Assembly: GCA_965215045.1 (NCBI GenBank)
Contig: OZ244031.1
Location: 1,386,626 to 1,450,625 of the forward strand
Length of the DNA: 64,000 bases
Source: Gammaproteobacteria bacterium
GTDB lineage: Bacteria; Pseudomonadota; Gammaproteobacteria; JABABF01
Reading direction: 5' to 3'
Below are positions 1,371 through 63,738 of the stretch, piece by piece. How positions within the stretch are numbered: position 1 is the first letter of the stretch; every line of letters starts with the position of its first letter. The notes under the pieces were generated by a model. The model was not told the DNA's origin. It ran no database searches and saw nothing but the letters and a program-made list of their open reading frames with translations. Made by a program: the position numbers and the translations under genes.

Positions 1371-1399
1371 TTTACAAATGCGTGCAGTTTATGTATAAA
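1371..1399 (+). promoter_or_regulatory. Candidate sigma70 promoter (TTTACA -17 bp- TATAAA) for the H1/AlgP-like gene
   Basis: TTTACA at ~1371-1376 and TATAAA at ~1394-1399 with 17-bp spacing, inside an AT-rich divergent intergenic region. Confidence 0.35.
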
Positions 1400-1488
1400 T
1401 GCACGCGCTGCAGGGGGCAATGATTGTGCTGTGCTCCTTGCATTTATTTTTTATGCCGAATGACACTGCAACTACCAGGGGGAATATC

Positions 1489-2262
1489 ATGGCGATGAAG
1501 AGAACCAAGCCCGCGACCACCCGGCGCGTAAAAAAGAAAGGCAAAGGTCCGGCCAAGCGCAAAGCAGTGCGCAAGCCGGCGGCGAAAGTCGTCAAGACCG
1601 CCGCCGTCCTGGGTGCTGAGAAAACAGTTGCCAAGCTGGTACGCGAGTTGTCGGTTGCCGCCACCGCCACCGACGCCGCTCGCCGCAAGGCCGATGCGGC
1701 GCGCAAGACCGCACTTGCCAGGAAAACCGCGGGAGCCCGGCGCACGGCCCGGGCCGCTCGCAAGTCCGCCACTACGGTCGCCAGGCGTGCGACCACGATC
1801 CGGGCCCGCCTGGCCCAGTCGCGTCGCAAACTGGTCGATGCCCGGGCCCAGGCCCGGGTGCGGGCCCTGGAAGCGACCGGCAGGGCGAAGCTGGCACAGC
1901 GCAGGAACGAGATGAAGCGGGGCCTGGACGGCAGTTTGCGCAAGGCGGTTGCCGTGTTCAGCAAGAACTGGCGCAAGAAAAGCGAACACAAAATTGATGT
2001 CACGATCCGGCGCGCCGAACGCAAGCTGATGAAGCGGGTGAAGACCGCCGAACGCAAGCTGGAGAAAGCGACCGCCGCCCGCAAGACCGTGAAGGCCCGG
2101 AAAAAAGTGGTGCGCAAGACGGCGAGACGCAAGCCCGCCGCCAGGGCCCAGGCCCGCAAACCCGCAGCCGCCAAGAAAGTTGCGGCGCGCAAACCGGCGA
2201 GGAAAGCAGCCAGGAAAGTGGTGCGCAGAAAGACGGGGCACCGGGCAGCCGCCAGGAAATAA
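1489..2262 (+). CDS. Histone H1-like / AlgP-like lysine-alanine-rich basic DNA-binding protein
   Basis: ATG preceded by GGGGGA SD; extremely basic low-complexity product rich in KPAA/AARK/ARKA repeats (MAMKRTKPATTRRVKKKGKGPAKRKAVRKPAAK...). Followed by a rho-independent terminator. Confidence 0.6.
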   Translation: MAMKRTKPATTRRVKKKGKGPAKRKAVRKPAAKVVKTAAVLGAEKTVAKLVRELSVAATATDAARRKADAARKTALARKTAGARRTARAARKSATTVARRATTIRARLAQSRRKLVDARAQARVRALEATGRAKLAQRRNEMKRGLDGSLRKAVAVFSKNWRKKSEHKIDVTIRRAERKLMKRVKTAERKLEKATAARKTVKARKKVVRKTARRKPAARAQARKPAAAKKVAARKPARKAARKVVRRKTGHRAAARK

Positions 2263-4056: not shown

Positions 4057-5064
4057 GTGCACAAGCAGCGTGTTCTCACCGGTATTACCACGACCGGTGC
4101 CCCGCACCTGGGGAATTATGCCGGTGCCATTCGCCGCGCCGTCGACCTCAGCCGCGATGCTTCCATAGAATCTTTCTACTTCTTGGCCGACTACCACGCA
4201 CTGGCCAAATGTGATGACCCCGAGCGGGTTGCGCGCGCCACGCTGGAGGTCGCCGCCGGCTGGCTCGCCCTGGGCCTCGACGTGGAGCACGCGCTTTTTT
4301 ACCGGCAGTCGGATATCCCTGAAATTGCCGAGCTCACATGGCTCTTGCACTGCGTGGCGGCGAAGGGGCTCATGAACCGGGCGCATGCCTACAAGGCCGC
4401 GGTGTCTGAAAACACGGGGGCCGGGGAGGACCCCGACCGGGCGATCACCATGGCGCTGTTCTGTTACCCGGTGCTGATGGCGGCGGATATCTTGCTTTTC
4501 AAGGCGCATCGCGTCCCGGTGGGCAGTGACCAGAAGCAGCACGTGGAGATGACCCGCGACATCGCACAGCGTTTCAATCATCATTACGGGGAACGGTTCG
4601 TGCTGCCGGAGGCGGAGTTGCCGGAGGGTGGGGAGACGTTGCCGGGGTTGGATGGCCGGAAAATGAGCAAGAGTTACGACAACACGATTCCGCTGTTTGC
4701 CGAACGGAAAAACTTGCGCAAGCTGGTGATGAAAATCAAGACCAATTCCCAACCGCCCGAAGAGCCCAAGAACCCCGAGGGCTGCACCCTGTTCCAGCTC
4801 TACAATGCTTTTGCCGGCCGTGAACAGGGCGAGGAACTGCGCAATCTCTATGCCCGGGGCATCGCCTGGGGCGAGGTCAAGGAACGCTTGTTCGCACTGC
4901 TGGATGCGGAACTGGAAGAACCGCGCCGCAAGTACCAGGCCCTGTTGGCGGACAGCGCGCAACTGGAAGAGACTTTGCAGCAGGGTGCCCGGCGCGCGCG
5001 CGAGTTGAGCGGCCCGTTCATGCGTGAGTTGCGCCATGCGGTCGGCTTGCGCCCCCTGCACTGA
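4057..5064 (+). CDS. trpS: Tryptophan--tRNA ligase
   Basis: GTG start; class I aaRS motifs TGAPHLGNY (HIGH-like) and KMSKS present. Confidence 0.9.
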   Translation: MHKQRVLTGITTTGAPHLGNYAGAIRRAVDLSRDASIESFYFLADYHALAKCDDPERVARATLEVAAGWLALGLDVEHALFYRQSDIPEIAELTWLLHCVAAKGLMNRAHAYKAAVSENTGAGEDPDRAITMALFCYPVLMAADILLFKAHRVPVGSDQKQHVEMTRDIAQRFNHHYGERFVLPEAELPEGGETLPGLDGRKMSKSYDNTIPLFAERKNLRKLVMKIKTNSQPPEEPKNPEGCTLFQLYNAFAGREQGEELRNLYARGIAWGEVKERLFALLDAELEEPRRKYQALLADSAQLEETLQQGARRARELSGPFMRELRHAVGLRPLH

Positions 5065-5065
5065 T

Positions 5066-5227
5066 CCGGGTTCTTGTTTTTTTATGCCGTGGAGGAATGC
5101 TTGCGATGAGTTGCGGGTTCTTGTTTTTTTGTGCCGTGGAGGAATGCTTGCGATGAGTCGCGGGTTCTTGTTTTTTTATGCCGTGGAGGAATGCTTGCGA
5201 TGAGTCGCGGGTTCTTGTTTTTTTCGC
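5066..5227 (+). repeat. Tandem direct repeat, ~47 bp x 3.4, duplicating the SD + start codon + first codons of the downstream MotA/ExbB-like gene
   Basis: Unit cgggttcttgtttttttatgccgtggaggaatgcttgcgatgagt repeated head-to-tail; copies differ at 1-2 positions. Confidence 0.85.
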
Positions 5228-6243
5228 TGGTATTGTTCAGCCTGATTTTTGCCAACCTGGGATACCTGCTGGGTCTCTCCCCGTGGCTGGGCCTGGCTCC
5301 CCCGCTGCTGTTGGTGCCGTCCTGGCTCCTGTTGCGCCGCACGGCGGACGGTGCGGGACGGGTCCGACTCGCACTCGTGCTCTGCAACCAATTGAGCCTG
5401 CTGCTGGTGGCACTGGCACTGGCCGGCCAGGCCTGGTTCGTGCTGGCCGAGACCGGCGTCTCCGTCAGGATCGGTCCTCTGCTGCCGCTGTTCGTGGCGG
5501 CACTCGCTCTCTACCTGTTGCACGTCTCCCTGTCCCGCCTGCGCGCCCGGGACGTGCCCGGCATGCCGCATTTCCTGCAACTGCTGACCGGGCCGGCACT
5601 GTTGCCCACCGTGTGCACGGGCCTGATCCTCACCGCCTTTGCCCTGGTGCTGCTCGACTGGCTGCAAACGGATCTCGGCATTTTGCAGAGTGTCTCGGTG
5701 CGTTTCCTGGAGCGCGGCCTCATCCCGCCGCTGACCCTGCTGTTGTTTTTTTGCGGGCTCCTGATCCTGGTCAGCAAGTGGGGAGCAAACTGGTACCTGT
5801 ACCAGGTGCTGGCCGGCCGGCTCGGCACGGAAACCGCCATGCGCATCGCTGCGACTATCGCCGCCCTGGGTTCGCCGCGGCGCGAAATCCTGGAAGACCA
5901 ATTGCAGTTGATCCGCTATCGTTCCGAGGAGTCCTACCTGATCCCGCGTTATATCAGCTGGGCGGTGCCGATTCTCGGTTTTATCGGCACGGTGCTCGGC
6001 ATCTCCCTGGCGGCGGACGGCATCCGCCGTATCGTCAGTTCGCAAGAGGGGCTCACCGGGCTTTCCAGTGACCTGGGACAGGCGATCGCCCCGCTGGGGA
6101 TCGCCTTTGACACCACCCTGATCGCCCTGTCGCTGAGCGTGGTCCTGACCCTGATCCTGACCCTGGTGCAGCGCGGCGAGGAGCGGGTGCTCTCCGGCCT
6201 GGAGGAGCGGCTGCGGGGAGCGAGCAGTGGCACCTCGCACTGA
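5200..6243 (+). CDS. MotA/TolQ/ExbB-family proton-channel protein, long form (~347 aa) with a polytopic N-terminal extension
   Basis: ATG at 5200 preceded by GGAGGA; C-terminal region AVPILGFIGTVLGISLA...LGQAIAPLGIAFDTTLIALSLSVVLTLIL matches the MotA/TolQ/ExbB channel signature. An in-frame upstream GTG at 5131 lies within the repeat. Confidence 0.6.
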   Translation: MSRGFLFFSLVLFSLIFANLGYLLGLSPWLGLAPPLLLVPSWLLLRRTADGAGRVRLALVLCNQLSLLLVALALAGQAWFVLAETGVSVRIGPLLPLFVAALALYLLHVSLSRLRARDVPGMPHFLQLLTGPALLPTVCTGLILTAFALVLLDWLQTDLGILQSVSVRFLERGLIPPLTLLLFFCGLLILVSKWGANWYLYQVLAGRLGTETAMRIAATIAALGSPRREILEDQLQLIRYRSEESYLIPRYISWAVPILGFIGTVLGISLAADGIRRIVSSQEGLTGLSSDLGQAIAPLGIAFDTTLIALSLSVVLTLILTLVQRGEERVLSGLEERLRGASSGTSH

Positions 6244-6769
6244 GTCCAGGGGGCCGGGAGGTGCCGCCCGGGGCCTGCGCCGGCAGGAGGAAAACAATGC
6301 GCCGCTGCTGGCACTGTTTGGCGGCATTTTCGCCCTGCTGCTGGTGTTCTTGCTGCTGGTCAACCTGCTGTTTGAAGAATCCCTGCGAGAACGCCTGGAG
6401 CAGGCGGAGGAGAAGGGGCTCTACCGTATCCAGTCCGAGTACGGCGGCGAGGGTTTCGTGGTGATCACCTTCCCGGAGACCCTGCGCATCGTCGAGACCG
6501 GGGAAGGCGTGCAGCGGGGCCGTATATGCGAGGAGAGCAGTGTCTTCGTCCAGTACGCCCGGCGCGTCTACAGCAAGGACCGCAAACAACTGGTCTTTGC
6601 GCTTTTAGAGGGCAGCGTGTCGACCATGGCCGAAGCCCGGGGGTGTATTCGCCAGTTGATGCCCAACCGGCCGCTGAACATCGGCTGGATCATGGCGGAC
6701 AATGAATTGCTGAAGTCGGTGTCGCTGGACGATATCCCCCCGTACATCCGCGATTTTGCTGAACCCTGA
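6227..6769 (+). CDS. ExbD/TolR-like single-pass membrane protein (putative)
   Basis: GTG start overlapping the upstream stop; Arg-rich N-terminus then TM NNAPLLALFGGIFALLLVFLLLVNLL resembling the ExbD NxTPxxDVxLVLLIIF anchor, followed by a ~110 aa periplasmic domain. Good codon bias. Confidence 0.45.
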   Translation: MAPRTESRGPGGAARGLRRQEENNAPLLALFGGIFALLLVFLLLVNLLFEESLRERLEQAEEKGLYRIQSEYGGEGFVVITFPETLRIVETGEGVQRGRICEESSVFVQYARRVYSKDRKQLVFALLEGSVSTMAEARGCIRQLMPNRPLNIGWIMADNELLKSVSLDDIPPYIRDFAEP

Positions 6770-6801
6770 GTGATGCGGGAGAGAATGTCTGCATCGGGTG
6801 G

Positions 6802-8727
6802 TTGCGAGGCGCACATCGCCGCCGCTCGCCACCGCACCCGGGCCCCGTGAGACAGCGTCTGCCCGATTTCGCCGGCGTCGCGCTGGTCGATATCCTCGCC
6901 AACGGCGTCGGGATGCTGATTATCATCATTGTGCTCAGCATCTCCGCGCGCTTTGCCCAGGAGGAAAAGCAGTTGGAGCAGGTCGACGATGTCTCGGTGG
7001 TGTTGAGTCGCCAACTGGCGACTTCCATCGTGCTGAACACGCTGTCTGCCGCCCCGCCGGCGCGCCTGCACGATTACGAGAAGTCGCCGCTGGACCAGAA
7101 CCTGGATTTCCAGCGCATTCCCATCCTCGAACTGCACCGGGAATTCGTCCGTGATTATTACAGCGGCCGGGTCTTTTTACGCAAGGAATTGCTGCTGGAA
7201 CAAAATCGTCTCGACGAGTTTGTCGCCGCCTTCAGCCCGCTCCAGAAACGGGGTATCCGGGTGGACATCTATGATATTCGACAGTTTTACCTGGCGATGT
7301 CTATTCTGCGCACCCACGGCATCGACCCGCGGCACTGGCACTTTCTCAGCGGCGGTGGCATGGGCGTGCAGGATGCCGGTTTTTGTCCGGGCGGCACGCC
7401 GGGCAGCGAGTGTACCGGCATCGGCGGCGGTGCCGGTGCCGAGGTCCTGGCACAGCGGGACCTGGACCGGCTGTTTGCCGATGGTTCCGATGCCCGTGGG
7501 GAAGAGGAGGGCGATGCAGAGGACGGGGAGGGTTCCGGCACCGGGGGGGAAGGGCAGGAGGAGGCACCGGCCGTGGCGGCCGGGGGAGGGGCCGGGGGAG
7601 GCGAAGGAGAAGAGGGGGGCGAAGACGCAGAGGAGACCGGTGCCCAGTGGTTGCCCGGTGAATCGGACTTGTCAAACATCGCCCAGGGCTCGGCCGCAAG
7701 CCTGGTGCGGTTTCCCGCCAGCGGTGCCATTCCGCAGAGTGCAGATGCCCCGGGTGCCGGTAGCGCAGATTCGATGGCGGGCCAGCCATTGGACAGTTCC
7801 CACCAGGACCTGATGCAGAGCATCGGCAGAAGCAGTACCTTGCAGGACAACGGCCAGGGCAGTGCAGTGCGCCCGCAAAAGGCGCGCTTTCGCCGGGCGG
7901 TGCCGGAAGAGAATGAGCGGCAGCGAAACCGGAGGAATAACGGCTCCCCCGGCGAGCAGACCCGCAGGCTCGACACACTGCCGCCCCTGCGTGATATCCT
8001 GGCGATCCTGCTGGGCTACATGCGCGAAGTGCAGGAACTGCTGGACCGGGGTCAGTCCCCGCTGCCCTTGTTGCAGGGTTTCAGCGACAGCATGGAGGAG
8101 CAGTTGCAGAACCCGCCGCCCGTGCGCGCCGCAGACGAGGAGCTGATTCTCCCCCTGGTCGAACATTTCATCGCCTACTGGCCCGATGATTCGGCACCGG
8201 ACGTTCGACAGGAATTGCGCCCGCAATTGTCTTCGGCGGCACTGATTTTGCCACCCAATACCGGGGTGGAGGAACTGGTACTGGGCGGGAACGAGTACCA
8301 GGAAAAACTGCCGGAGCTGCCGTCACCCAAGCCGGTGCGGGTGCGTATCAACCTGTATCCCAGCGTGTTTCGCGGGCTGTTGCAGAACCTGGAACTTCAC
8401 AGCGTACTGCTGATGCCCCCCGAACAGCAGGACCCGGGACAGTTCCGCTGGCGGGCGGTAACCTACATTTCACCGGCCTTTGATGATTATGTCTTCGGCT
8501 TTGTCTACGCGGCCCTGGATGCGGACGGCGAACTTCTGGTGCAGGCCGATGCCAACCGCGTGCAGGTGGGTCAGCACTTCACCCGTACCGTCGCCCCTCC
8601 CAGGGAGTTTGACGTGCGCGACTGGATGACGCTCTTCTATGCGCTGCTGGTCGGCGCCCTGCTGTTGTTCCTGGTGCCGGCACTCGCCTACTGGTGGCGG
8701 GTGCGCCGTCCCGTGCCGGCGCACTGA
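6802..8727 (+). CDS. Large membrane protein with ExbD/TolR-like N-terminal anchor, acidic Gly/Glu-rich disordered linker, globular C-terminal domain and C-terminal TM helix
   Basis: TTG start (alternative GTG ~6847). N-terminal TM VALVDILANGVGMLIIIIVLSI is ExbD-like; residues ~200-290 are GGGxGEGEEGGED low-complexity; ends with TM WMTLFYALLVGALLLFLVPALAYWW. Confidence 0.5.
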   Translation: MRGAHRRRSPPHPGPVRQRLPDFAGVALVDILANGVGMLIIIIVLSISARFAQEEKQLEQVDDVSVVLSRQLATSIVLNTLSAAPPARLHDYEKSPLDQNLDFQRIPILELHREFVRDYYSGRVFLRKELLLEQNRLDEFVAAFSPLQKRGIRVDIYDIRQFYLAMSILRTHGIDPRHWHFLSGGGMGVQDAGFCPGGTPGSECTGIGGGAGAEVLAQRDLDRLFADGSDARGEEEGDAEDGEGSGTGGEGQEEAPAVAAGGGAGGGEGEEGGEDAEETGAQWLPGESDLSNIAQGSAASLVRFPASGAIPQSADAPGAGSADSMAGQPLDSSHQDLMQSIGRSSTLQDNGQGSAVRPQKARFRRAVPEENERQRNRRNNGSPGEQTRRLDTLPPLRDILAILLGYMREVQELLDRGQSPLPLLQGFSDSMEEQLQNPPPVRAADEELILPLVEHFIAYWPDDSAPDVRQELRPQLSSAALILPPNTGVEELVLGGNEYQEKLPELPSPKPVRVRINLYPSVFRGLLQNLELHSVLLMPPEQQDPGQFRWRAVTYISPAFDDYVFGFVYAALDADGELLVQADANRVQVGQHFTRTVAPPREFDVRDWMTLFYALLVGALLLFLVPALAYWWRVRRPVPAH

Positions 8728-8730
8728 GCG

Positions 8731-10326
8731 ATGCGCGGACAAATCCCCGTCCTGTCGCTGGTGCTGCTGCTGGTGCTGCTGCTGGCACTGGCGGCGGTCA
8801 CCCGTCTGCGCCTGCCCTCTGCCCAACTCGGCACGGTGCCGGTTCTCATGGAGGCGAGTGCTGCGTCGAGTGCCCGGGGACGCGCGGTCGATGCGCTGCT
8901 GTTGCCGCACCTGGCAGAGCTGGGCCGTGACCCGCAACTGGCCGGGGCACTGGATGCGCCGCAAAAAATGGTCGAACTGCGCGGTTTCTGGGTCGATGCC
9001 TGCGAGGTGCGCCAGGGGGATTACGAGCGCTTCCTGTTGTGGTTGGAAAAAAATCCGCGGCGCCTCCCATCACTGGCCGCGCCGGGACAACCCTACAATT
9101 GGCGCTATGACACGAGTTCCCGCGGGCACCGCCTGGCCGGACGCCTGCAGTCGCCGGCCAGCGGCGTCAGTTATTTCGACGCCTACGCGTACTGCCGCGC
9201 CGCGCGCGGGCGTCTGCCCTTCAGCGAGGAGTGGCAGGCCTTGGCCGGCGGCGAGGAGGGGCGGCTCTACCCCTGGGGAGATGATTTTCGCCAATCCCCC
9301 TGGCCCTACCTGGAAGCCGATCTCAACGCCTCGCAACTGTGTGGCCTGCACCCGGATACCAGCACCCCGGAAGGCGTGCACGACCTGGCGGGCGGGGTCA
9401 TGGAATGGACGCAGGGACAGCGTATCCAGGCACCGCAGGAGAGACGGGCCGCACTGCACGGGGCACCGCCCGAGCGCAAGCCGCCCCAGGGTGTGCACGC
9501 ACTGAACGTGGTACAGCGTCCGATGACGCCCAGGCACCGCAGCCATCATGTCGGTTTCCGTTGCATTTACAACAATCGGCCCAGGCGCCAGCTGCCCTGG
9601 GGAGTGCGCCCGAAGCGGGTGCGCATCCCCGGCGGGCGCTACCGCACCGGTATGCCGCCGGATGCGCGACTGCCCAGGCTCGCCGCCCTGTTGCCGCCGG
9701 AGCGGCTGGGCAAGCTCGCCGCCCTGCTCCAGGGGGGCGAGCGCAAAGCGCGCACCATCCGCTTCGGCCGCTGCGAGGTCAGTCGTGCCCATTACCGCGT
9801 GTTCCTGGGCGACCCGATGGTGCGCCTGGGCCTGTTCGGTAACGAGAACGAGCCCCCGGACGTGAATTACACGCCCCTGGATTGGACCCAGCAGCAACGG
9901 CAGCCGGCACTGCCGGTGACAGGCGTGGATTGGTGGTCGGCGGACGCTTTTGCGCGCTGGGCCGGCGGCCGGCTGCCCAGTGCCGACGAATGGGATATTG
10001 CCGCCGCCGGTCCCGGGGCCACACGCTACCCGTGGGGAGATGAATACGACCCGGAGCGGGCGATGACCGGCGACCTGCCGCAGGCGACCCCGGCGGCCTG
10101 CGGCATCCGGGAACAAGACCTGAGTGCCGCCGGTCTGCACGACCTGGCGGGCAATGTCTCGGAGTGGACCCGCAGCATCACGGTGGAAAAACGGGGTTAC
10201 GCCATGCTGGTCAAGGGGGGCAGCTACCTGTTGCCGGGTGAGGCCAGCGCGCGCAACGGCTTTGCCCGGGCGGCACCGCTGAATCATCGCACGGCAGATA
10301 TCGGTTTTCGCGTTGTGTTTGATTGA
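8731..10326 (+). CDS. Secreted/membrane-anchored protein with two formylglycine-generating-enzyme (FGE/SUMF1, DUF323) domains
   Basis: N-terminal signal/TM (VLSLVLLLVLLLALAAV); two copies of the FGE-sulfatase fold signature (GFRxV..., xxDxAxAYCxWAGxRLPxxxEW, HDLxGNVxEWT, LVKGGSY). Confidence 0.65.
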   Translation: MRGQIPVLSLVLLLVLLLALAAVTRLRLPSAQLGTVPVLMEASAASSARGRAVDALLLPHLAELGRDPQLAGALDAPQKMVELRGFWVDACEVRQGDYERFLLWLEKNPRRLPSLAAPGQPYNWRYDTSSRGHRLAGRLQSPASGVSYFDAYAYCRAARGRLPFSEEWQALAGGEEGRLYPWGDDFRQSPWPYLEADLNASQLCGLHPDTSTPEGVHDLAGGVMEWTQGQRIQAPQERRAALHGAPPERKPPQGVHALNVVQRPMTPRHRSHHVGFRCIYNNRPRRQLPWGVRPKRVRIPGGRYRTGMPPDARLPRLAALLPPERLGKLAALLQGGERKARTIRFGRCEVSRAHYRVFLGDPMVRLGLFGNENEPPDVNYTPLDWTQQQRQPALPVTGVDWWSADAFARWAGGRLPSADEWDIAAAGPGATRYPWGDEYDPERAMTGDLPQATPAACGIREQDLSAAGLHDLAGNVSEWTRSITVEKRGYAMLVKGGSYLLPGEASARNGFARAAPLNHRTADIGFRVVFD

Positions 10327-10455
10327 GAGGGGCCGGGCGGCGGCCACCGGTTTTGGCCTTGTGTTTGATTGAGAGGGGCCGGGCGGCGGCCACCGGTTTT
10401 GGCCTTGTGTTGGACTGGGCGGGGGCGCGCAGCGGCCACCGGTTTTGGCCTTGTG
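10310..10455 (+). repeat. Tandem direct repeat ~46 bp x 3 spanning the stop codon of the FGE gene
   Basis: ttgtgtttgattgagaggggccgggcggcggccaccggttttggcc x2 plus a diverged third copy; abuts the 3' end of tRNA-Leu. Confidence 0.85.
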
Positions 10456-10477
10456 TTCACCCCGGCGGCTCCGGGCC

Positions 10478-10565
10478 CTGGTACCAGAGGCCGGACTCGA
10501 ACCGGCACGCTCTTGCGAGCAATGGATTTTGAGTCCACCGTGTCTACCAATTTCACCACTCTGGC
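10478..10565 (-). tRNA. tRNA-Leu (anticodon CAA)
   Basis: Reverse complement GCCAGAGTGGTGAAATTGGTAGACAC...ACTCAAAATCC...GGTTCGAGTCCGGCCTCTGGTACCA: type II tRNA with long variable arm, anticodon loop CUCAAAA, encoded CCA. Confidence 0.8.
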
Positions 10566-17300: not shown

Positions 17301-20281
17301 TATTCTTCGGCCTGCAGCTGCGGCGGCAGTTCGGCATCGCGCGGTACGATCACGGCGGTGCTGGCATTTTCCGGCCGCAGCCAGGCGGTGCCGACGCGCT
17401 GTAAATCCTCCATGCGCGTGTTCAGCACCGCCTTGCGGAATGCGCGGCGGTATTGCGGCCCCCTGCCGAACAGCCGGCCGTGGAAATCCGCCTGCGCCTC
17501 GCCCGCCGGGGAACCGGGCTTGTCCAGGGCGGCGATGACGCTCAGGATCGCCTCTTCCAGTTGCAGCGGCTGATGCCGGGTCTGCTGCAGCCAGTCCAGG
17601 GCGCGGTCAAAATCTTCCAGGGTCGCAGCCAGGCGCGGGTCGCGATAGGAAAAGCAGCAGAAGGCGGCGTGGTCGCCGCTGTAGCGGGCACCGCCCCCGT
17701 ACGCGCCGCCCTGTTCGCGAATCGCGGGGTGCAGGTAGCCGTGGCGCAGGAACTCGGCGAGTACGCAAAGCGGTGCGGCATCGGCATGTGTCGGCGGAAC
17801 CGCGGGCCAGGCCCGGGCGCAGAAATGCACCTGCGTGTCCAGGCGCCACACCTGGGATATGCGCTCTCGCACCGGCGGCAGGGGCAGCAGTGCCTCGCCG
17901 GGTGCCCGTGCGGGGGCCGCACCCGGCCACTGTGCGGCGAGTTCCTGTGTGCACGCCGCCAGTGCCTCCTCTTCGGCGATGAGCAGGGCCTGCAACGGCA
18001 TATCGCGCAATGCACCATGGATCGCGGCCAGCTGTCCGGCCAGCCCTTGCAGGGCGTCGCTCTCCGCGGCATCCCGGTCCAACTGCTTGAGACGCCGCAC
18101 CCCCTCCAGGCCGCTGCATTGATGTGCGAGCACCGCGCCGGGACTCATGCCGGACAGGGCGGCACCCATTGCCAGGCGATGCCCGTGGTCGGTGAGCAGT
18201 TCTTCGCTGCGCGCGCGCGCCTGTGCCAGCAACTCGCGCAGACGCGGCAATTCATCGAAACGCACTTCGTCCAGGGTCTGGCGCAACAGGGCACTGAGCG
18301 CCGCATGATTGCGGAGCAGGGCGTGCGAGGACAGCACGAAGCGCGCCTGCACGCGCTGCGGGTCCGCCACCGTGCCGCGCTGCAGGACGGCGGCACTCAC
18401 CCCGCTGCAGATTGCCGCCTGGCGTTTTTGCACGGACAGGTAGTCCTGTTCGCCGACGCCCAGCTCCCCGAGGAAACGCGCGTACAAGGGCAACAGGAAT
18501 TGCTGTTCTCGCGGCAGTTCCGGCAGATCGAACACCAGTTGCTGGTAGGCGATGCCGTTGCTGCCGCAGGCGTAATACCTAAGCGGCAGGGTGCCGGCGC
18601 TGCCGTGTGCGGGCTGTAATTCCTCGATGTCCGCTGGCGCATCGTGCAGGCGCAGGCGCGGCAGCACCTCGGGGTCGTCCTTGTGTTTCTGCCGCTGTTC
18701 CAGGGCCCGGCCCTTCTCTACCAGTTCTTGACAATCTTCCGCCGACAGCGTGCTGCGCACTGCCGCCAGGCGTTCTTGCACCTGCTGTTCGCGCTCGCTG
18801 CGCAGCCCGGGGTCCGGTTTCATCACCAGGCGCAGGCGGTGTGGATTGTCGAGCAATTGTTCGCGCACCAGCCGCGGGACAAACTGCGGGTCGCCGATGT
18901 CATCGCGCAATTGCTGCAGCACCGGCTCCAGGTTCAGCACCGCCAGCGGGTCGCCGTGATGAATGGCGGCGGGCAGGCATTGCATCATCAGCTGCAGGCC
19001 GTAGGGGAAGCCGTCGCCGCCGATCTCCCGGTGCTGCAGTTCAAATTGGTGCAACACCGCCTCCGTCATCTCCTGTGGCACGCCTTTCTCCGCCGTCTCA
19101 GACAGGGTGTCCAGCACCTCCTGCTCCAGCGCGCCGGCGTGCTCCGGTTCACTGCCTTCGATGCCGCATACCAGGCACAATTCGCGCTGCCCGTCTTCCA
19201 GGCCGCACAGGGAGGAGGGCGCGTTGCCGAGCCGGGTGGTCTCCAGCAGCTGCCGCAGCGGCGAGGCACTGTTGTCCAGCAGGATCCCGTGCAACAGGTT
19301 GGCGCGGGCGATCTGCTCCAGGGAACTGGCGTCGCCCAGGAGCCAGGCGAGCAGGATATGGGTGCGTCCCTTGAGCGCATCGGCACCGTTCCCCGCCTCG
19401 CTCAGCATGTAGCGTTCCTGCGCACACAGCGGTGCCTGGAACCGGGTCTCCAGCGGCACCTGGAACTGTTCCGCCGGTGCGGAGAAATGCTGCAGCACAT
19501 GTTCCTCCAAGTGCGCCTGGTGCTCCGCTGCGGGAATATTGCCGTACGTCATGAACGTGGCATTGCCCGGATGGTAATGACGGCGATGAAAATCGACCAG
19601 GGCTGTGTGCTGCAGTGCGGGGATCTCCAGGGGGTCGCCGCCGCTGTTGTAGCGGTACGTGGTGTCCGGATGCAGGTGACGACACAGGGCCTGCCAGAGT
19701 TGCGCCGGCGTCGAACTCATGGCTCCCAGCATCTCGTTGTAGACCACGCCCCGGTACACCAGCGGGGTGTCCGGGTTGTCGAGCTGCTCGAATTCCATGC
19801 GGTGGCCTTCCTGGGCGAAGTCCAGTGCGTCCAGTTTGGGGAAGAACACCGCATCCAGGTAGACCTGCAGCAGGTTGTCAAAATCCCGCCGGTTGCGGGT
19901 GGCAAAAGGGTAGGCGGTCCAATCGCTGGAGGTGAACGCGTTCATGAACGTGGAGAGCGAGCGCCGCAACATCATGAAGAAGGGATCGCGCACCGGGTAG
20001 CGTTGGCTGCCGCACAGGGCAGTGTGTTCCAGGATGTGGGCGACCCCGGTCGAATCATCGGGGGCGGTGCGCAGGCCGACCAGGAATGCATTTTCCATGC
20101 TGTCTGCGGCGAGATGCAGGTGCAGGGCACCGGTGGCCTGGTGACGGTACTCTTCGATGCACAGGCGCAGTGCGGGAATTTCCTGCCGGCGCCCGGGCGT
20201 GAAACCGGAACCGGGCGCAGCACCCGGCGATGCGGGAGAACTCGCGGGCGTGCCGCGGCGCCCGCCGTGTTGGGCAATCAT
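17291..20281 (-). CDS. M16C-family zinc metallopeptidase (presequence-protease/PreP-like insulinase)
   Basis: Start placed at the internal Met (MIAQHGG...) because the longer ORF overlaps mnmC; HxxEH zinc motif in GVAHILEHTALCGSQRYP plus downstream M16C regions; ~996 aa. Confidence 0.75.
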   Translation of the reverse strand: MIAQHGGRRGTPASSPASPGAAPGSGFTPGRRQEIPALRLCIEEYRHQATGALHLHLAADSMENAFLVGLRTAPDDSTGVAHILEHTALCGSQRYPVRDPFFMMLRRSLSTFMNAFTSSDWTAYPFATRNRRDFDNLLQVYLDAVFFPKLDALDFAQEGHRMEFEQLDNPDTPLVYRGVVYNEMLGAMSSTPAQLWQALCRHLHPDTTYRYNSGGDPLEIPALQHTALVDFHRRHYHPGNATFMTYGNIPAAEHQAHLEEHVLQHFSAPAEQFQVPLETRFQAPLCAQERYMLSEAGNGADALKGRTHILLAWLLGDASSLEQIARANLLHGILLDNSASPLRQLLETTRLGNAPSSLCGLEDGQRELCLVCGIEGSEPEHAGALEQEVLDTLSETAEKGVPQEMTEAVLHQFELQHREIGGDGFPYGLQLMMQCLPAAIHHGDPLAVLNLEPVLQQLRDDIGDPQFVPRLVREQLLDNPHRLRLVMKPDPGLRSEREQQVQERLAAVRSTLSAEDCQELVEKGRALEQRQKHKDDPEVLPRLRLHDAPADIEELQPAHGSAGTLPLRYYACGSNGIAYQQLVFDLPELPREQQFLLPLYARFLGELGVGEQDYLSVQKRQAAICSGVSAAVLQRGTVADPQRVQARFVLSSHALLRNHAALSALLRQTLDEVRFDELPRLRELLAQARARSEELLTDHGHRLAMGAALSGMSPGAVLAHQCSGLEGVRRLKQLDRDAAESDALQGLAGQLAAIHGALRDMPLQALLIAEEEALAACTQELAAQWPGAAPARAPGEALLPLPPVRERISQVWRLDTQVHFCARAWPAVPPTHADAAPLCVLAEFLRHGYLHPAIREQGGAYGGGARYSGDHAAFCCFSYRDPRLAATLEDFDRALDWLQQTRHQPLQLEEAILSVIAALDKPGSPAGEAQADFHGRLFGRGPQYRRAFRKAVLNTRMEDLQRVGTAWLRPENASTAVIVPRDAELPPQLQAEEYQL

Positions 20282-23365: not shown

Positions 23366-23524
23366 CCCCGCATTCGCCGGGTGGTATCGGGCCGGGGAGC
23401 GGGTCTGGGGCCTGGGTGGTGCTGTCGGGGAGCGGGTCTGGGGCCTGGGTGGTGCTGTCGGGGGAGCGGGTCTGGGGCTTGGGTGGCACCCCGCATTCGC
23501 GGGATGGTATCGGGCCGGGGAGCA
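23366..23524 (+). repeat. Composite repeat: 33-bp unit x3 bracketed by a 32-bp direct repeat
   Basis: ccccgcattcgccgggtggtatcgggccgggg [gggagcgggtctggggcctgggtggtgctgtcg]x3 ccccgcattcgcgggatggtatcgggccgggg. Confidence 0.8.
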
Positions 23525-35485: not shown

Positions 35486-36762
35486 AACAGCAGCTGCAGC
35501 CCCTGTTCCGCATGCTGCGGGAACTGCTGCTGTTTTGTATCGCCGGTCTTTTGCCGGGGGCACTGCTGGGCGTCCCGCTGCAGGGATTGGGCGTCGGCGT
35601 CGGCACCTGGCTGCTCTGGAACCTGGTCCAACCGCTGCGCCTCTGGCAGTGGTTGCAGCGGGAGACGACGAGCCCGCCGCCCAGGAGCCTGGGTCTGTGG
35701 CAGTCGATCTTCACAAGCCTGGGTCGCCGCCAGGCCGAGCAGGCCGCCTCGGCGGAAGCGGTGGCACCTTTGCGCGAGTTATTCCAGAATTTCAACAGCG
35801 CGGTGATCCTGCTGGATGCCGACGGACGCATCGCCTGGTGCAACCAGGCTGCGACCTCGCTGCTGGGAGTGCGCTTTCCCGAAGACCGACGCCGTCACCT
35901 GGGCAACCTGCTGCGCACCCCGGAACTGTTGCATTTCCTGCAGCAGATGCCAGAGCAGACACCGCTGGAATGCGCATCGCCCGGCGATGCCTCGCGACAC
36001 CTGCGTTTCGGCTGTGCGCGCCTGCCGGAGGGCAGGGGTATTGTCTTTGTCCAGGATATTACCCAGCCGCACCGGCTGGAGAAGATGCGCCGGGACTTTA
36101 TTGCCAATGTCTCGCACGAATTGCGCACCCCGCTGACCGTGATCATCGGCAGCCTGGAACTCATGGACGAGCCGCTGCCGCCTGCCAAGCTGCGTGAAAT
36201 GCAGGAAGACATGCGCCACCAGGCCGGGCGCATGTCAGACCTGGTGCAAAGCCTGTTGCGCCTGGCGCAGCTCGAGAGTATGACCGAGCCCGCCGCCCGC
36301 GAACACATCCCACTGCGCCTGCTGCTGGCAGAAGTCTGTGACAGTATGAAAGCCAAGGCAGGTGAAGGGCGGCGCCTGGAATCGCACTGTCCGGATGCGC
36401 TGGTACTGCTGGGTTCCCGGGGCGAGTTGCAGAGCGTTTTCCTCAACCTGCTGGACAACGCCGTGCGCCACACCGACGCCCGGGAAGGCGTGGTGCAGGT
36501 AGAGGCCGAAGGCAGTGCCGAAGGTATCCGCGTGAAGGTGAAGGATAACGGTGCCGGCATCGAACGCCGACACCTGCCCCGGTTGACCGAGCGTTTTTAT
36601 CGCGTCGACGAAGGCCGGAATTCCGCCCAGGCGGGCACCGGCCTGGGACTGGCCATCGTCAAGCACGCCCTGGAACGACACCAGGGCGAGTTGCAAATTC
36701 ACAGCCGACCGGGGGAGGGCAGCGAGTTCGTGTGCTGCTTCCCGCCGGAGCGCAGCGGCTGA
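35482..36762 (+). CDS. phoR: Phosphate regulon sensor histidine kinase PhoR
   Basis: N-terminal TMs, PAS, H-box VSHELRTPLT, ATPase G-boxes (DNGAGI...GTGLGLAIV). Confidence 0.8.
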   Translation: MKQQLQPLFRMLRELLLFCIAGLLPGALLGVPLQGLGVGVGTWLLWNLVQPLRLWQWLQRETTSPPPRSLGLWQSIFTSLGRRQAEQAASAEAVAPLRELFQNFNSAVILLDADGRIAWCNQAATSLLGVRFPEDRRRHLGNLLRTPELLHFLQQMPEQTPLECASPGDASRHLRFGCARLPEGRGIVFVQDITQPHRLEKMRRDFIANVSHELRTPLTVIIGSLELMDEPLPPAKLREMQEDMRHQAGRMSDLVQSLLRLAQLESMTEPAAREHIPLRLLLAEVCDSMKAKAGEGRRLESHCPDALVLLGSRGELQSVFLNLLDNAVRHTDAREGVVQVEAEGSAEGIRVKVKDNGAGIERRHLPRLTERFYRVDEGRNSAQAGTGLGLAIVKHALERHQGELQIHSRPGEGSEFVCCFPPERSG

Positions 36763-36960
36763 ACCCCTCCCGCACATCGTCTGAACTCCTCCCGCACATC
36801 GCCGGGCCCCCTCCCAAACATCGCCTGACCCCTTCCCGCATAGCACCTGAACTCCTCCCGCGCACCGCCTGAACTCCTCCCGCGCATCGTTTGGCCTCCT
36901 CCCGCACATCGTCTGAACCCTTCCCGCACAGCACCTGAACTCCTCCCGCACAGCACCAGT
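36763..36960 (+). repeat. Array of ~9 degenerate 22-bp direct repeats (CTGAACTCCTCCCGCACATCGT-like) with no spacers
   Basis: Units begin immediately after the phoR stop and continue contiguously; they differ at 2-5 positions each. Confidence 0.8.
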
Positions 36961-63363: not shown

Positions 63364-63738
63364 TTTTGCCGGTGCTTGCGCGCCGGCTTTTTGTTACACG
63401 GGCTTGCGTTGCGGTTTGCGCTGTCGCCGCACACCGCTTGGCCTGCGTTTCTTGCGCTTGGCCCTGGGGTGCGAGCGATCGTAGTATCTTTTGCCGGTGC
63501 TTGCGCGCCGGCTTTTTGTTACACGGGCTTGCGTTGCGGTTTGCGCTGTCGCCGCACACCGCTTGGCCTGCGTTTCTTGCGCTTGGCCCTGGGGTGCGAG
63601 CGATCGTAGTATCTTTTGCCGGTGCTTGCGCGCCGGCTTTTTGTTACACGGGCTTGCGTTGCGGTTTGCGCTGTCGCCGCACACCGCTTGGCCTGCGTTT
63701 CTTGCGCTTGGCCCTGGGGTGCGAGCGATCGTAGCTCT
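63364..63738 (+). repeat. Tandem direct repeat 125 bp x 3 at the 3' end of xerC
   Basis: ttttgccggtgcttgcgcgccggctttttgttacacgggcttgcgttgcggtttgcgctgtcgccgcacaccgcttggcctgcgtttcttgcgcttggccctggggtgcgagcgatcgtagtatc repeated three times (last copy ...gtagctc). Confidence 0.9.

Follow-up and report, generated by a model that had tools for sequence, protein, structure and literature searches.

Proton-driven 5:2 stators power flagella, Ton-dependent uptake, the Tol-Pal system, gliding and type IX secretion, and Zorya defence, and each new output of such a stator has taught new biology. Here we analyse a cassette of four genes, g1 to g4, located at 5200-10326 on the + strand of a 64,000-nucleotide stretch (hereafter the window) of the gammaproteobacterial contig OZ244031.1 (assembly GCA_965215045.1, positions 1,386,626 to 1,450,625). 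On balance, we read the cassette as a self-contained operon encoding a machine of the inner membrane that is powered by the proton-motive force (PMF) and belongs to the Tol/Ton/Mot "5:2 stator" kind. The cassette is set apart by an unusual channel, two unequal, putatively TolR-like partners, a domain of no known fold and a protein with two pseudo-domains of the formylglycine-generating enzyme (FGE) fold.

As in TolQ-TolR of the Tol-Pal system and ExbB-ExbD of the Ton system, a channel gene is followed by genes for proteins with a single-pass N-terminal helix. The likeness extends to an invariant Asp on one partner (g3), to two pore-lining Thr kept in the channel, and to a periplasmic domain predicted to have the TolR fold in both partners. 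However, g1 has approximately five extra N-terminal helices and its cytoplasmic loop is short, g2 and g3 are undetectable with ExbD profiles, and g3 is extended by a disordered linker, by a domain of novel type and by a further membrane anchor. The cassette also has no TolA/TonB, Pal or TolB partner, and its fourth component is instead the double pseudo-FGE protein.

The gliding motor AglRQS of Myxococcus and the exbB-exbD1-exbD2 operons each pair a single channel gene with two distinct genes for TolR/ExbD-like partners. The initial annotation of the window had pointed to the resemblance with AglRQS, and the one-channel, two-partner layout is indeed present here, but given both precedents it is not unusual. 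Unlike in those systems, the partners measure 180 versus 641 residues, only one of them has a conserved carboxylate, and no Glt-type partners are found. The GldLM/PorLM proton motor works with the FGE-fold proteins GldK/PorK and GldJ in type IX secretion. It provides the one described precedent known to us for a proton motor beside a non-catalytic periplasmic FGE-fold protein, and the statement in the initial annotation that no described system was known to combine an ExbB/ExbD-type PMF stator with an FGE-domain effector needs this correction. GldL and GldM are, however, not sequence relatives of g1-g3 and the host phyla differ. Moreover, GldK is an outer-membrane lipoprotein assembling into a ring with GldN, whereas g4 appears to be held by an inner-membrane helix and has two FGE domains.

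SUMF2 (pFGE) and other non-catalytic FGE-fold proteins have kept the structural Cys and lost the catalytic Cys pair, as g4 has, but g4 differs from SUMF2 in being a bacterial, probably membrane-anchored tandem double domain encoded in an operon with a putative proton channel. ZorA-ZorB of Zorya is a further MotAB-like pair outside motility, with weak profile similarity to the cassette in the membrane parts; the cassette, however, has neither the ZorA tail nor the ZorC/D/E effectors, and its accessory parts are predicted to be periplasmic. None of TolQR/ExbBD, AglRQS/exbB-exbD1-exbD2 and GldKLMN has the architecture of g3 or a double pseudo-FGE partner. No description of the cassette was found in the literature searched (work on sponges, ExbB-ExbD and FGE; reviews on MotAB, ExbBD, TolQR, GldLM and ZorAB).

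The four proteins of the cassette

The four co-directional open reading frames (ORFs) are tightly packed, as the initial annotation had stated, and either overlap or are separated by gaps of 3-32 nt. They are g1 (5200-6243, 347 aa), g2 (6227-6769, 180 aa), whose 5′ end overlaps g1 by 17 nt, g3 (6802-8727, 641 aa) and g4 (8731-10326, 531 aa); these genes and all their features described below are on the + strand. An alternative start of g3, the GTG at 6847 (626 aa), is the one called in a public contig of a short-read metagenome-assembled genome (MAG) that is 99.7 % identical to the window. Proteins identical to g1, g2 and g4 are on record from a 2.08-Mb contig, those of g1 and g2 also from a short-read MAG, and the identical database protein P0241 confirms the start of g1.

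We assigned g1 to the MotA/TolQ/ExbB channel family as a divergent member using its ORF, Pfam and hydropathy. Pfam MotA_ExbB (PF01618) aligns to residues 228-332 over profile positions 28-123 of 127 with 22.6 bits versus a cut-off of 22.9, and 25 of the 26 family members match it at E<0.01, the best at 1.4e-6. Some g1 homologues bear a precomputed PF01618 match and the NCBI name. Taken together, the match is borderline yet consistent. Hydropathy shows six to seven hydrophobic segments before the two-helix core, i.e. approximately five extra helices plus the equivalent of the first transmembrane helix, in agreement with the long polytopic N-terminal extension noticed in the initial annotation. 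The cytoplasmic loop is short and the C-terminus extends about 25 aa beyond the last helix. The channel core (5881-6195, aa 228-332) consists of two helices with T264 (GFIGTVLGI) and T305 (AFDTTLIAL), both invariant in the alignment of 26 sequences. Judged from the motifs located in Escherichia coli TolQ and ExbB, they take the positions of TolQ T145/T178 and ExbB T148/T181. When g1 was aligned by hhalign to the single E. coli TolQ sequence, the first motif was paired, although the alignment was without significance.

Both g2 and g3 begin with a short basic segment followed by one membrane helix resembling that of ExbD/TolR. The N-terminal helix of g3 (6871-6939) carries D30 (codon 6889-6891), which is invariant in 120 of 120 sequences and occupies the relative position of TolR D23 and ExbD D25, near the cytoplasmic end of the helix. 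The surrounding motif A27-L-V-D30-I-L-A-N-G35 (ALVDILANG) is invariant or nearly so. At the equivalent position of g2 a conserved carboxylate is absent, the residue being Ala in 85, Glu in 27 and Ser in 7 of 119 sequences.

Behind the helices, the predicted periplasmic domains of both proteins, an alpha/beta domain in the single-pass g2 and aa ~100-200 of g3 (7099-7401), are probably of the TolR/ExbD fold according to the structural models. The g2 domain has two invariant Cys (C101 and C140). The TolR-like region of g3 has many invariant polar residues (H90, E110, H112, R117, R153, D155, Y157, Y163 and H178-W-H-F181), and an invariant Cys pair, C195 and C204, lies just after the domain. This density of His, Asp, Glu, Arg and Tyr would suit a metal or ligand site better than a purely structural role.

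Among sequence profiles, Pfam ExbD (PF02472) matched none of the 119 g2 and 21 g3 family members, also with the limit relaxed to E<=5; hhalign of g2 and g3 against the single E. coli TolR aligned the right motifs, but not significantly; and searches of PDB sequences with the g2 and g3 alignments returned nothing significant. The best PDB match of the g2 profile, a weak one, is the membrane helix of ZorB (E 0.11), and MotB_plug appears weakly in 4 of the 119 g2 members. With PF02472 failing to match, the ExbD/TolR assignment of g2 and g3 rests on fold, motif and gene position. The two ExbD/TolR-like anchors of the initial annotation are therefore retained as single N-terminal helices with a predicted fold and, in g3, the D30.

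The AlphaFold2 model of g3 (pLDDT 76) contains two confident domains. They are separated by a low-complexity, acidic and Gly-rich linker (7495-7836, aa 232-345) with pLDDT of 30-48 and gaps in the alignment, which varies in length and sequence among homologues. The linker is followed by a beta-rich, putatively periplasmic domain (7879-8601, aa ~360-600) modelled with pLDDT >90. This domain had no match in Pfam, NCBIfam or PDB sequences, and a Foldseek search of the whole g3 model against PDB gave no match at E<=1e-3. The protein ends with a membrane helix and a basic tail (8614-8706; helix 605-635 in the model, 611-629 by hydropathy). The disordered acidic linker, below 50 in pLDDT throughout, and the second C-terminal membrane segment had both been recognised in the initial annotation. 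The short-read contig L084 (CAYGBU010000062.1), from the same organism, ends at about window position 7630, inside the low-complexity linker; short-read MAGs will consequently often show g3 truncated or miss it.

The product of g4 combines an N-terminal hydrophobic segment with two stretches matching FGE-sulfatase (PF03781, E 5.3e-56), which form domains at aa ~85-284 and 341-529. The best PDB sequence match of the first domain is SUMF2, an inactive paralogue (1y4j, 1e-13). The segment that should hold the catalytic Cys pair, which we take to be C336/C341 in human FGE, is without any Cys in either domain, and no conserved Cys column is found there in an alignment of 71 sequences. Conservation of Cys in the same alignment is limited to C91, C155, C204 and C278 (100 % of sequences) and C348 and C457 (75 %), all of which are structural. 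Since both domains are without the catalytic pair, we class g4 among the pseudo-FGEs, as a module for binding or structure and not an enzyme; the two FGE domains of the initial annotation thus stand, but not the enzymatic "effector" role given to them. Its signal peptide could not be confirmed either, as neither a lipobox nor an obvious cleavage site is seen in the hydrophobic segment, which more likely represents an uncleaved anchor. The conserved Cys pairs of g2, g3 and g4 would fit a periplasmic location. NCBIfam searches with g4 gave GldK (TIGR03525) at 50 bits versus a cut-off of 350, and GldJ was also sub-threshold.

Conservation and distribution among sponge bacteria

The order g1-g2-g3-g4, on the same strand, is preserved in about 70 of 83 fetched loci, and most exceptions are truncated contigs. 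In three loci that we inspected, the same four genes stand in three unrelated genomic contexts. Such conservation is beyond chance. With the genes kept together and the g1 match borderline yet consistent across its family, the refutations named in the initial annotation do not apply. Clustering of the flanking ORFs revealed no fifth conserved gene, and the most frequent family of neighbours is limited to 16 loci of a single lineage.

We used g3 to estimate the size of the family. A word-indexed search recovered more than 222 relatives, none of them named, and an exhaustive HMMER search with the g3 profile against 1.84 billion representatives gave only 161 clusters at E<=1e-3, 151 of them also at E<=1e-10. 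The g3 family is tight and rare, without a tail of remote relatives. Three proteins (P0115, P0476 and P0508) are fusions of g3 with the FGE part. In P0115 the C-terminal helix of g3 and the anchor of g4 are both retained internally, with a short basic loop between them (RRAFPDRLRSR), a layout that fits a periplasmic location of both the g3 C-terminal domain and the g4 FGE domains on adjacent inner-membrane anchors. The contig of P0115 is labelled 5x, so this protein alone could be an assembly error.

The habitat of the carriers was not touched upon in the initial annotation. Scans of genomes and metagenomes were seeded by short peptide patterns. The genome scan recovered 80 loci, nearly all in MAGs with names or origins pointing to marine sponges, among them Ca. 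Spongiihabitans, Poriferihabitaceae, Porisulfidus and Oxydemutator, and the reef-sponge bins COS/STY/IRC/RHO/SB/PNG. Several of the carrier taxa are tied to sponge metagenomes by papers; for some bin series and for Thioalkalivibrio sp. HK1 we presume a sponge origin. All seven loci recovered from 241 million metagenome records come from four sponge assemblies: MKWU (Aplysina aerophoba), LXNI (Sarcotragus foetidus), LXNJ (Petrosia ficiformis) and WASV (Myxilla sp.). None of the matches bore the accession of the paired seawater assemblies LXNH and WASX, whose presence in the scanned collection was not checked.

Copies labelled Nitrospirales (on a closed chromosome), Alphaproteobacteria and Myxococcota share 70-85 % identity with copies of gammaproteobacterial sponge symbionts, which indicates horizontal transfer among sponge symbionts. 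The copy in the window is only 50-64 % identical to any other. Plasmid, phage and viral (IMG/VR) collections held no copy of the cassette.

The proposed machine and competing explanations

We infer that the products of the four genes would act as one complex. The g1 protein, with its extra belt of membrane helices, would be the proton channel, in which the TolR-like helices of g3 and g2 would be seated, Asp30 being present on g3 only. The stator would thus comprise g1 and g3 and probably also g2. The flexible linker of g3 would lead to the novel periplasmic domain, which the second helix would tether to the inner membrane beside the anchor of g4, and the two FGE-fold domains of g4, lectin-like and catalytically dead, would point into the periplasm. 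Protons passing g3-D30 and g1-T264/T305 may then cause movement or a conformational change of the module formed by the g3 C-terminal domain and g4, which would be the working end and would bind a periplasmic or envelope ligand.

The near-confinement to sponge bacteria of several phyla, together with the horizontal movement, suggests, as the most likely output, a function of the envelope that is peculiar to bacteria living in sponges. A more far-reaching version, which we regard as tentative, sees in the cassette a dedicated symbiosis machine: a horizontally shared proton motor of the inner membrane whose heterodimeric TolR-like axle, with one proton-carrying subunit and one without that role, would drive the lectin-like pseudo-FGE module in recognising or remodelling a ligand of sponge origin in the envelope or periplasm, and which would be needed for persistence in sponges. 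Most proposed sponge symbiosis factors are repeat proteins or defence genes. If true, the machine would count as the fifth or sixth class of 5:2 motor by function and would stand among the few mechanistic determinants of sponge symbiosis that are not eukaryote-like proteins. In any case, a rare family in sponge bacteria of several phyla is a concrete, testable candidate for a function in the sponge niche.

Several points weigh against a proton-driven machine devoted to sponge life. The g1 protein scores 0.3 bits under the Pfam cut-off, and its alignment profile matched no chain significantly among PDB sequences, for which reason we call it a divergent member of its family. No sequence profile ties g2 or g3 to ExbD/TolR, and both the 5:2 assembly and the pairing of g2 with g3 are assumptions. 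A g3 anchored at both ends is hard to square with continuous rotation of an axle. No link of the system with either the outer membrane or peptidoglycan was seen. As the scans were seeded by short peptide patterns, the restriction to one habitat could be partly a search artefact, and many taxonomic labels of MAGs were taken as deposited.

The ExbB/TolQ-like and TolR-like parts could also belong to a specialised Ton/Tol-type energiser of an outer-membrane process, e.g. the TonB-dependent import of a nutrient derived from the sponge, in which g3 would transmit force through its linker in the manner of TonB or TolA. The long low-complexity spacer of g3 is reminiscent of the spacers in TonB and TolA, and one Pseudomonadales/Azotimanducaceae lineage has, in 13 loci, genes for a TPR protein and a TonB-dependent receptor behind g4. 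However, g3 terminates in a membrane helix and basic tail and not in a TonB/TolA C-terminal domain, no Pfam TonB_C or TolA match was obtained, and the receptor is a neighbour in no more than 13 of about 80 loci and is found neither in the window nor in most lineages. We therefore regard such an energiser as rather unlikely. A lower probability still is given to an anti-phage defence of the Zorya kind, in which a MotAB-like pair would sense envelope damage with novel periplasmic partners. Its patchy, horizontally transferred distribution, the enrichment of sponge microbiomes in defence genes (PMC5099237), the weak PADLOC match of ZorA to the g1 channel core (E 6e-4, 16.6 bits), the ZorB helix as best PDB match of g2 and the DNA methyltransferase that adjoins the cassette in L001/L006 and lies nearby in L002 all speak in its favour. 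Nevertheless, the cassette has no cytoplasmic effector or nuclease, its accessory domains are all predicted to face the periplasm, the neighbours are mostly housekeeping genes with no recurring defence gene, and confinement to one host habitat is unexpected for a defence system. Membership in Zorya itself was rejected, as g1 gave only weak ZorA matches, PADLOC matched none of g2, g3 and g4, and the long ZorA-type tail is missing.

The FGE fold of g4 opens two further explanations. As in the type IX secretion/gliding apparatus (GldLM motor with the lipoproteins GldK and GldJ), a proton motor would stand beside an FGE-fold protein without catalytic activity. The cassette might be a miniature relative of that apparatus, and the sub-threshold NCBIfam matches of g4 to GldK (50 bits) and GldJ point in this direction. 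The GldK score is, however, far under the 350-bit cut-off, g4 lacks a lipobox, no homologues of GldL, GldM, GldN or SprA are encoded in or near the cassette, and the hosts are mainly Proteobacteria, outside the phylum carrying type IX secretion. Such a relationship is very unlikely, and membership in type IX secretion proper was rejected since every test of it failed (GldK score, lipoprotein signal, GldL/M/N neighbours). Sulfatases have been reported to be abundant in some sponge symbionts, and the strong PF03781 match could suggest that g4 is an active FGE maturing sulfatases for sulfated sponge polysaccharides, assisted by the membrane proteins. This we consider hardly probable at all: no sulfatase gene is a conserved neighbour, the nearest solved sequence is the inactive SUMF2, and both catalytic Cys are missing from both domains in all 71 aligned sequences, a loss for which the active enzyme was rejected.

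Repeats, tRNA-Leu and neighbouring genes

The cassette is flanked by two tandem repeats and abuts a tRNA-Leu(CAA) gene, and it was therefore interpreted in the initial annotation as a possible mobile islet. We confirmed the tRNA by ARAGORN and Rfam at 10479-10565 on the minus strand; it is a neighbour, outside the system. Using TRF, the upstream array was found at 5067-5224 (+ strand, 47 bp x3.4, 97 % matches) and the downstream one at 10302-10457 (+ strand, 46 bp x3.4, 91 % matches). The repeats are unrelated to each other, as noted before, but the copy number of the second is 3.4 and not 3.

The upstream array duplicates the start of g1. Its unit comprises the start region of g1 (GGAGGA ribosome-binding site, ATG and first 8 codons) and also a hairpin including the ATG, followed by a T-run. 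The extra units create two mini-ORFs of 16 codons (ATG at 5106 and 5153), each ending in a TGA that shares bases with the following ATG. In the 99.7 %-identical short-read contig (L084, 2957-3025) there are two fewer units, which reflects either real variation or assembly collapse; the array may possibly serve a translation control dependent on copy number, or the difference may come from such a collapse. The downstream array duplicates the end of g4, its unit consisting of the last 8 codons and TGA of g4 plus a short hairpin GGCCACCGGTTTTGGCC. As a result, three terminator-like hairpins lie between g4 and tRNA-Leu. RNA folding gave a z of -2.9 for the 47-bp array and 0.04 for the 46-bp array, i.e. 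no excess structure in the latter, and Rfam found no family other than tRNA in the region.

Both units are confined to their own arrays within the window (the 47-bp unit with 3 matches). The window contains other strong arrays, namely 33 bp x2.8 (23393-23486), 22 bp x8.8 (36759-36952) and 125 bp x3.0 with 100 % identity (63364-63734), and the genome seems prone to tandem duplication. That the cassette is a recently acquired mobile islet at tRNA-Leu bounded by the repeats is very unlikely and already largely disproved. The position next to the tRNA, the flanking repeats and the movement of the cassette between phyla over evolutionary time may suggest it, but each repeat copies the adjacent gene end and three more strong arrays lie elsewhere in the window. 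The GC content of the cassette (62-69 %) equals that of the flanks, no integrase, transposase or extra ORF family is present within it, and no plasmid or viral copies were found. The comparison of related genomes at tRNA-Leu, suggested in the initial annotation, showed the cassette in the same place in both of the nearest relatives, where the order trpS-cassette-tRNA-Leu-queA is kept even though the proteins are only 48-69 % identical. The tRNA adjoins the cassette only in the window and in these two closest relatives. We therefore rejected a tRNA-associated genomic island on the grounds of the unrelated repeats, the missing integrase, the flank-like GC and the shared site, and regard the cassette as resident here, though it has moved between lineages in the past.

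In the window, trpS (4057-5064) lies upstream of the cassette, and tRNA-Leu(CAA) is followed downstream by queA and tgt. The relative closest in synteny has a gene for an N6/N4 DNA methyltransferase between g4 and tRNA-Leu (L001 11455-12375, the same as L006), and the tRNA is inverted there. In L002, where g3 and g4 are fused, a second methyltransferase gene (18861-19357) was located approximately 7.5 kb downstream of the fusion gene. In the 13 loci of the Pseudomonadales/Azotimanducaceae lineage, the genes for the TPR protein (429 aa) and the TonB-dependent receptor (1099 aa) are on the same strand as g4, about 150 bp and 1.7 kb downstream of it (L016, L019, L020, L023, L029, L031, L036, L040 and others). 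A gene for a Ser/Thr protein kinase is present upstream of the cassette on the opposite strand in 16 loci. Finally, the window contains a 287-aa ORF at 1399-2262 (+ strand) whose product is extremely basic and rich in Ala, Lys and Arg, with a composition like that of histone H1 or AlgP; a long antisense ORF overlaps it.

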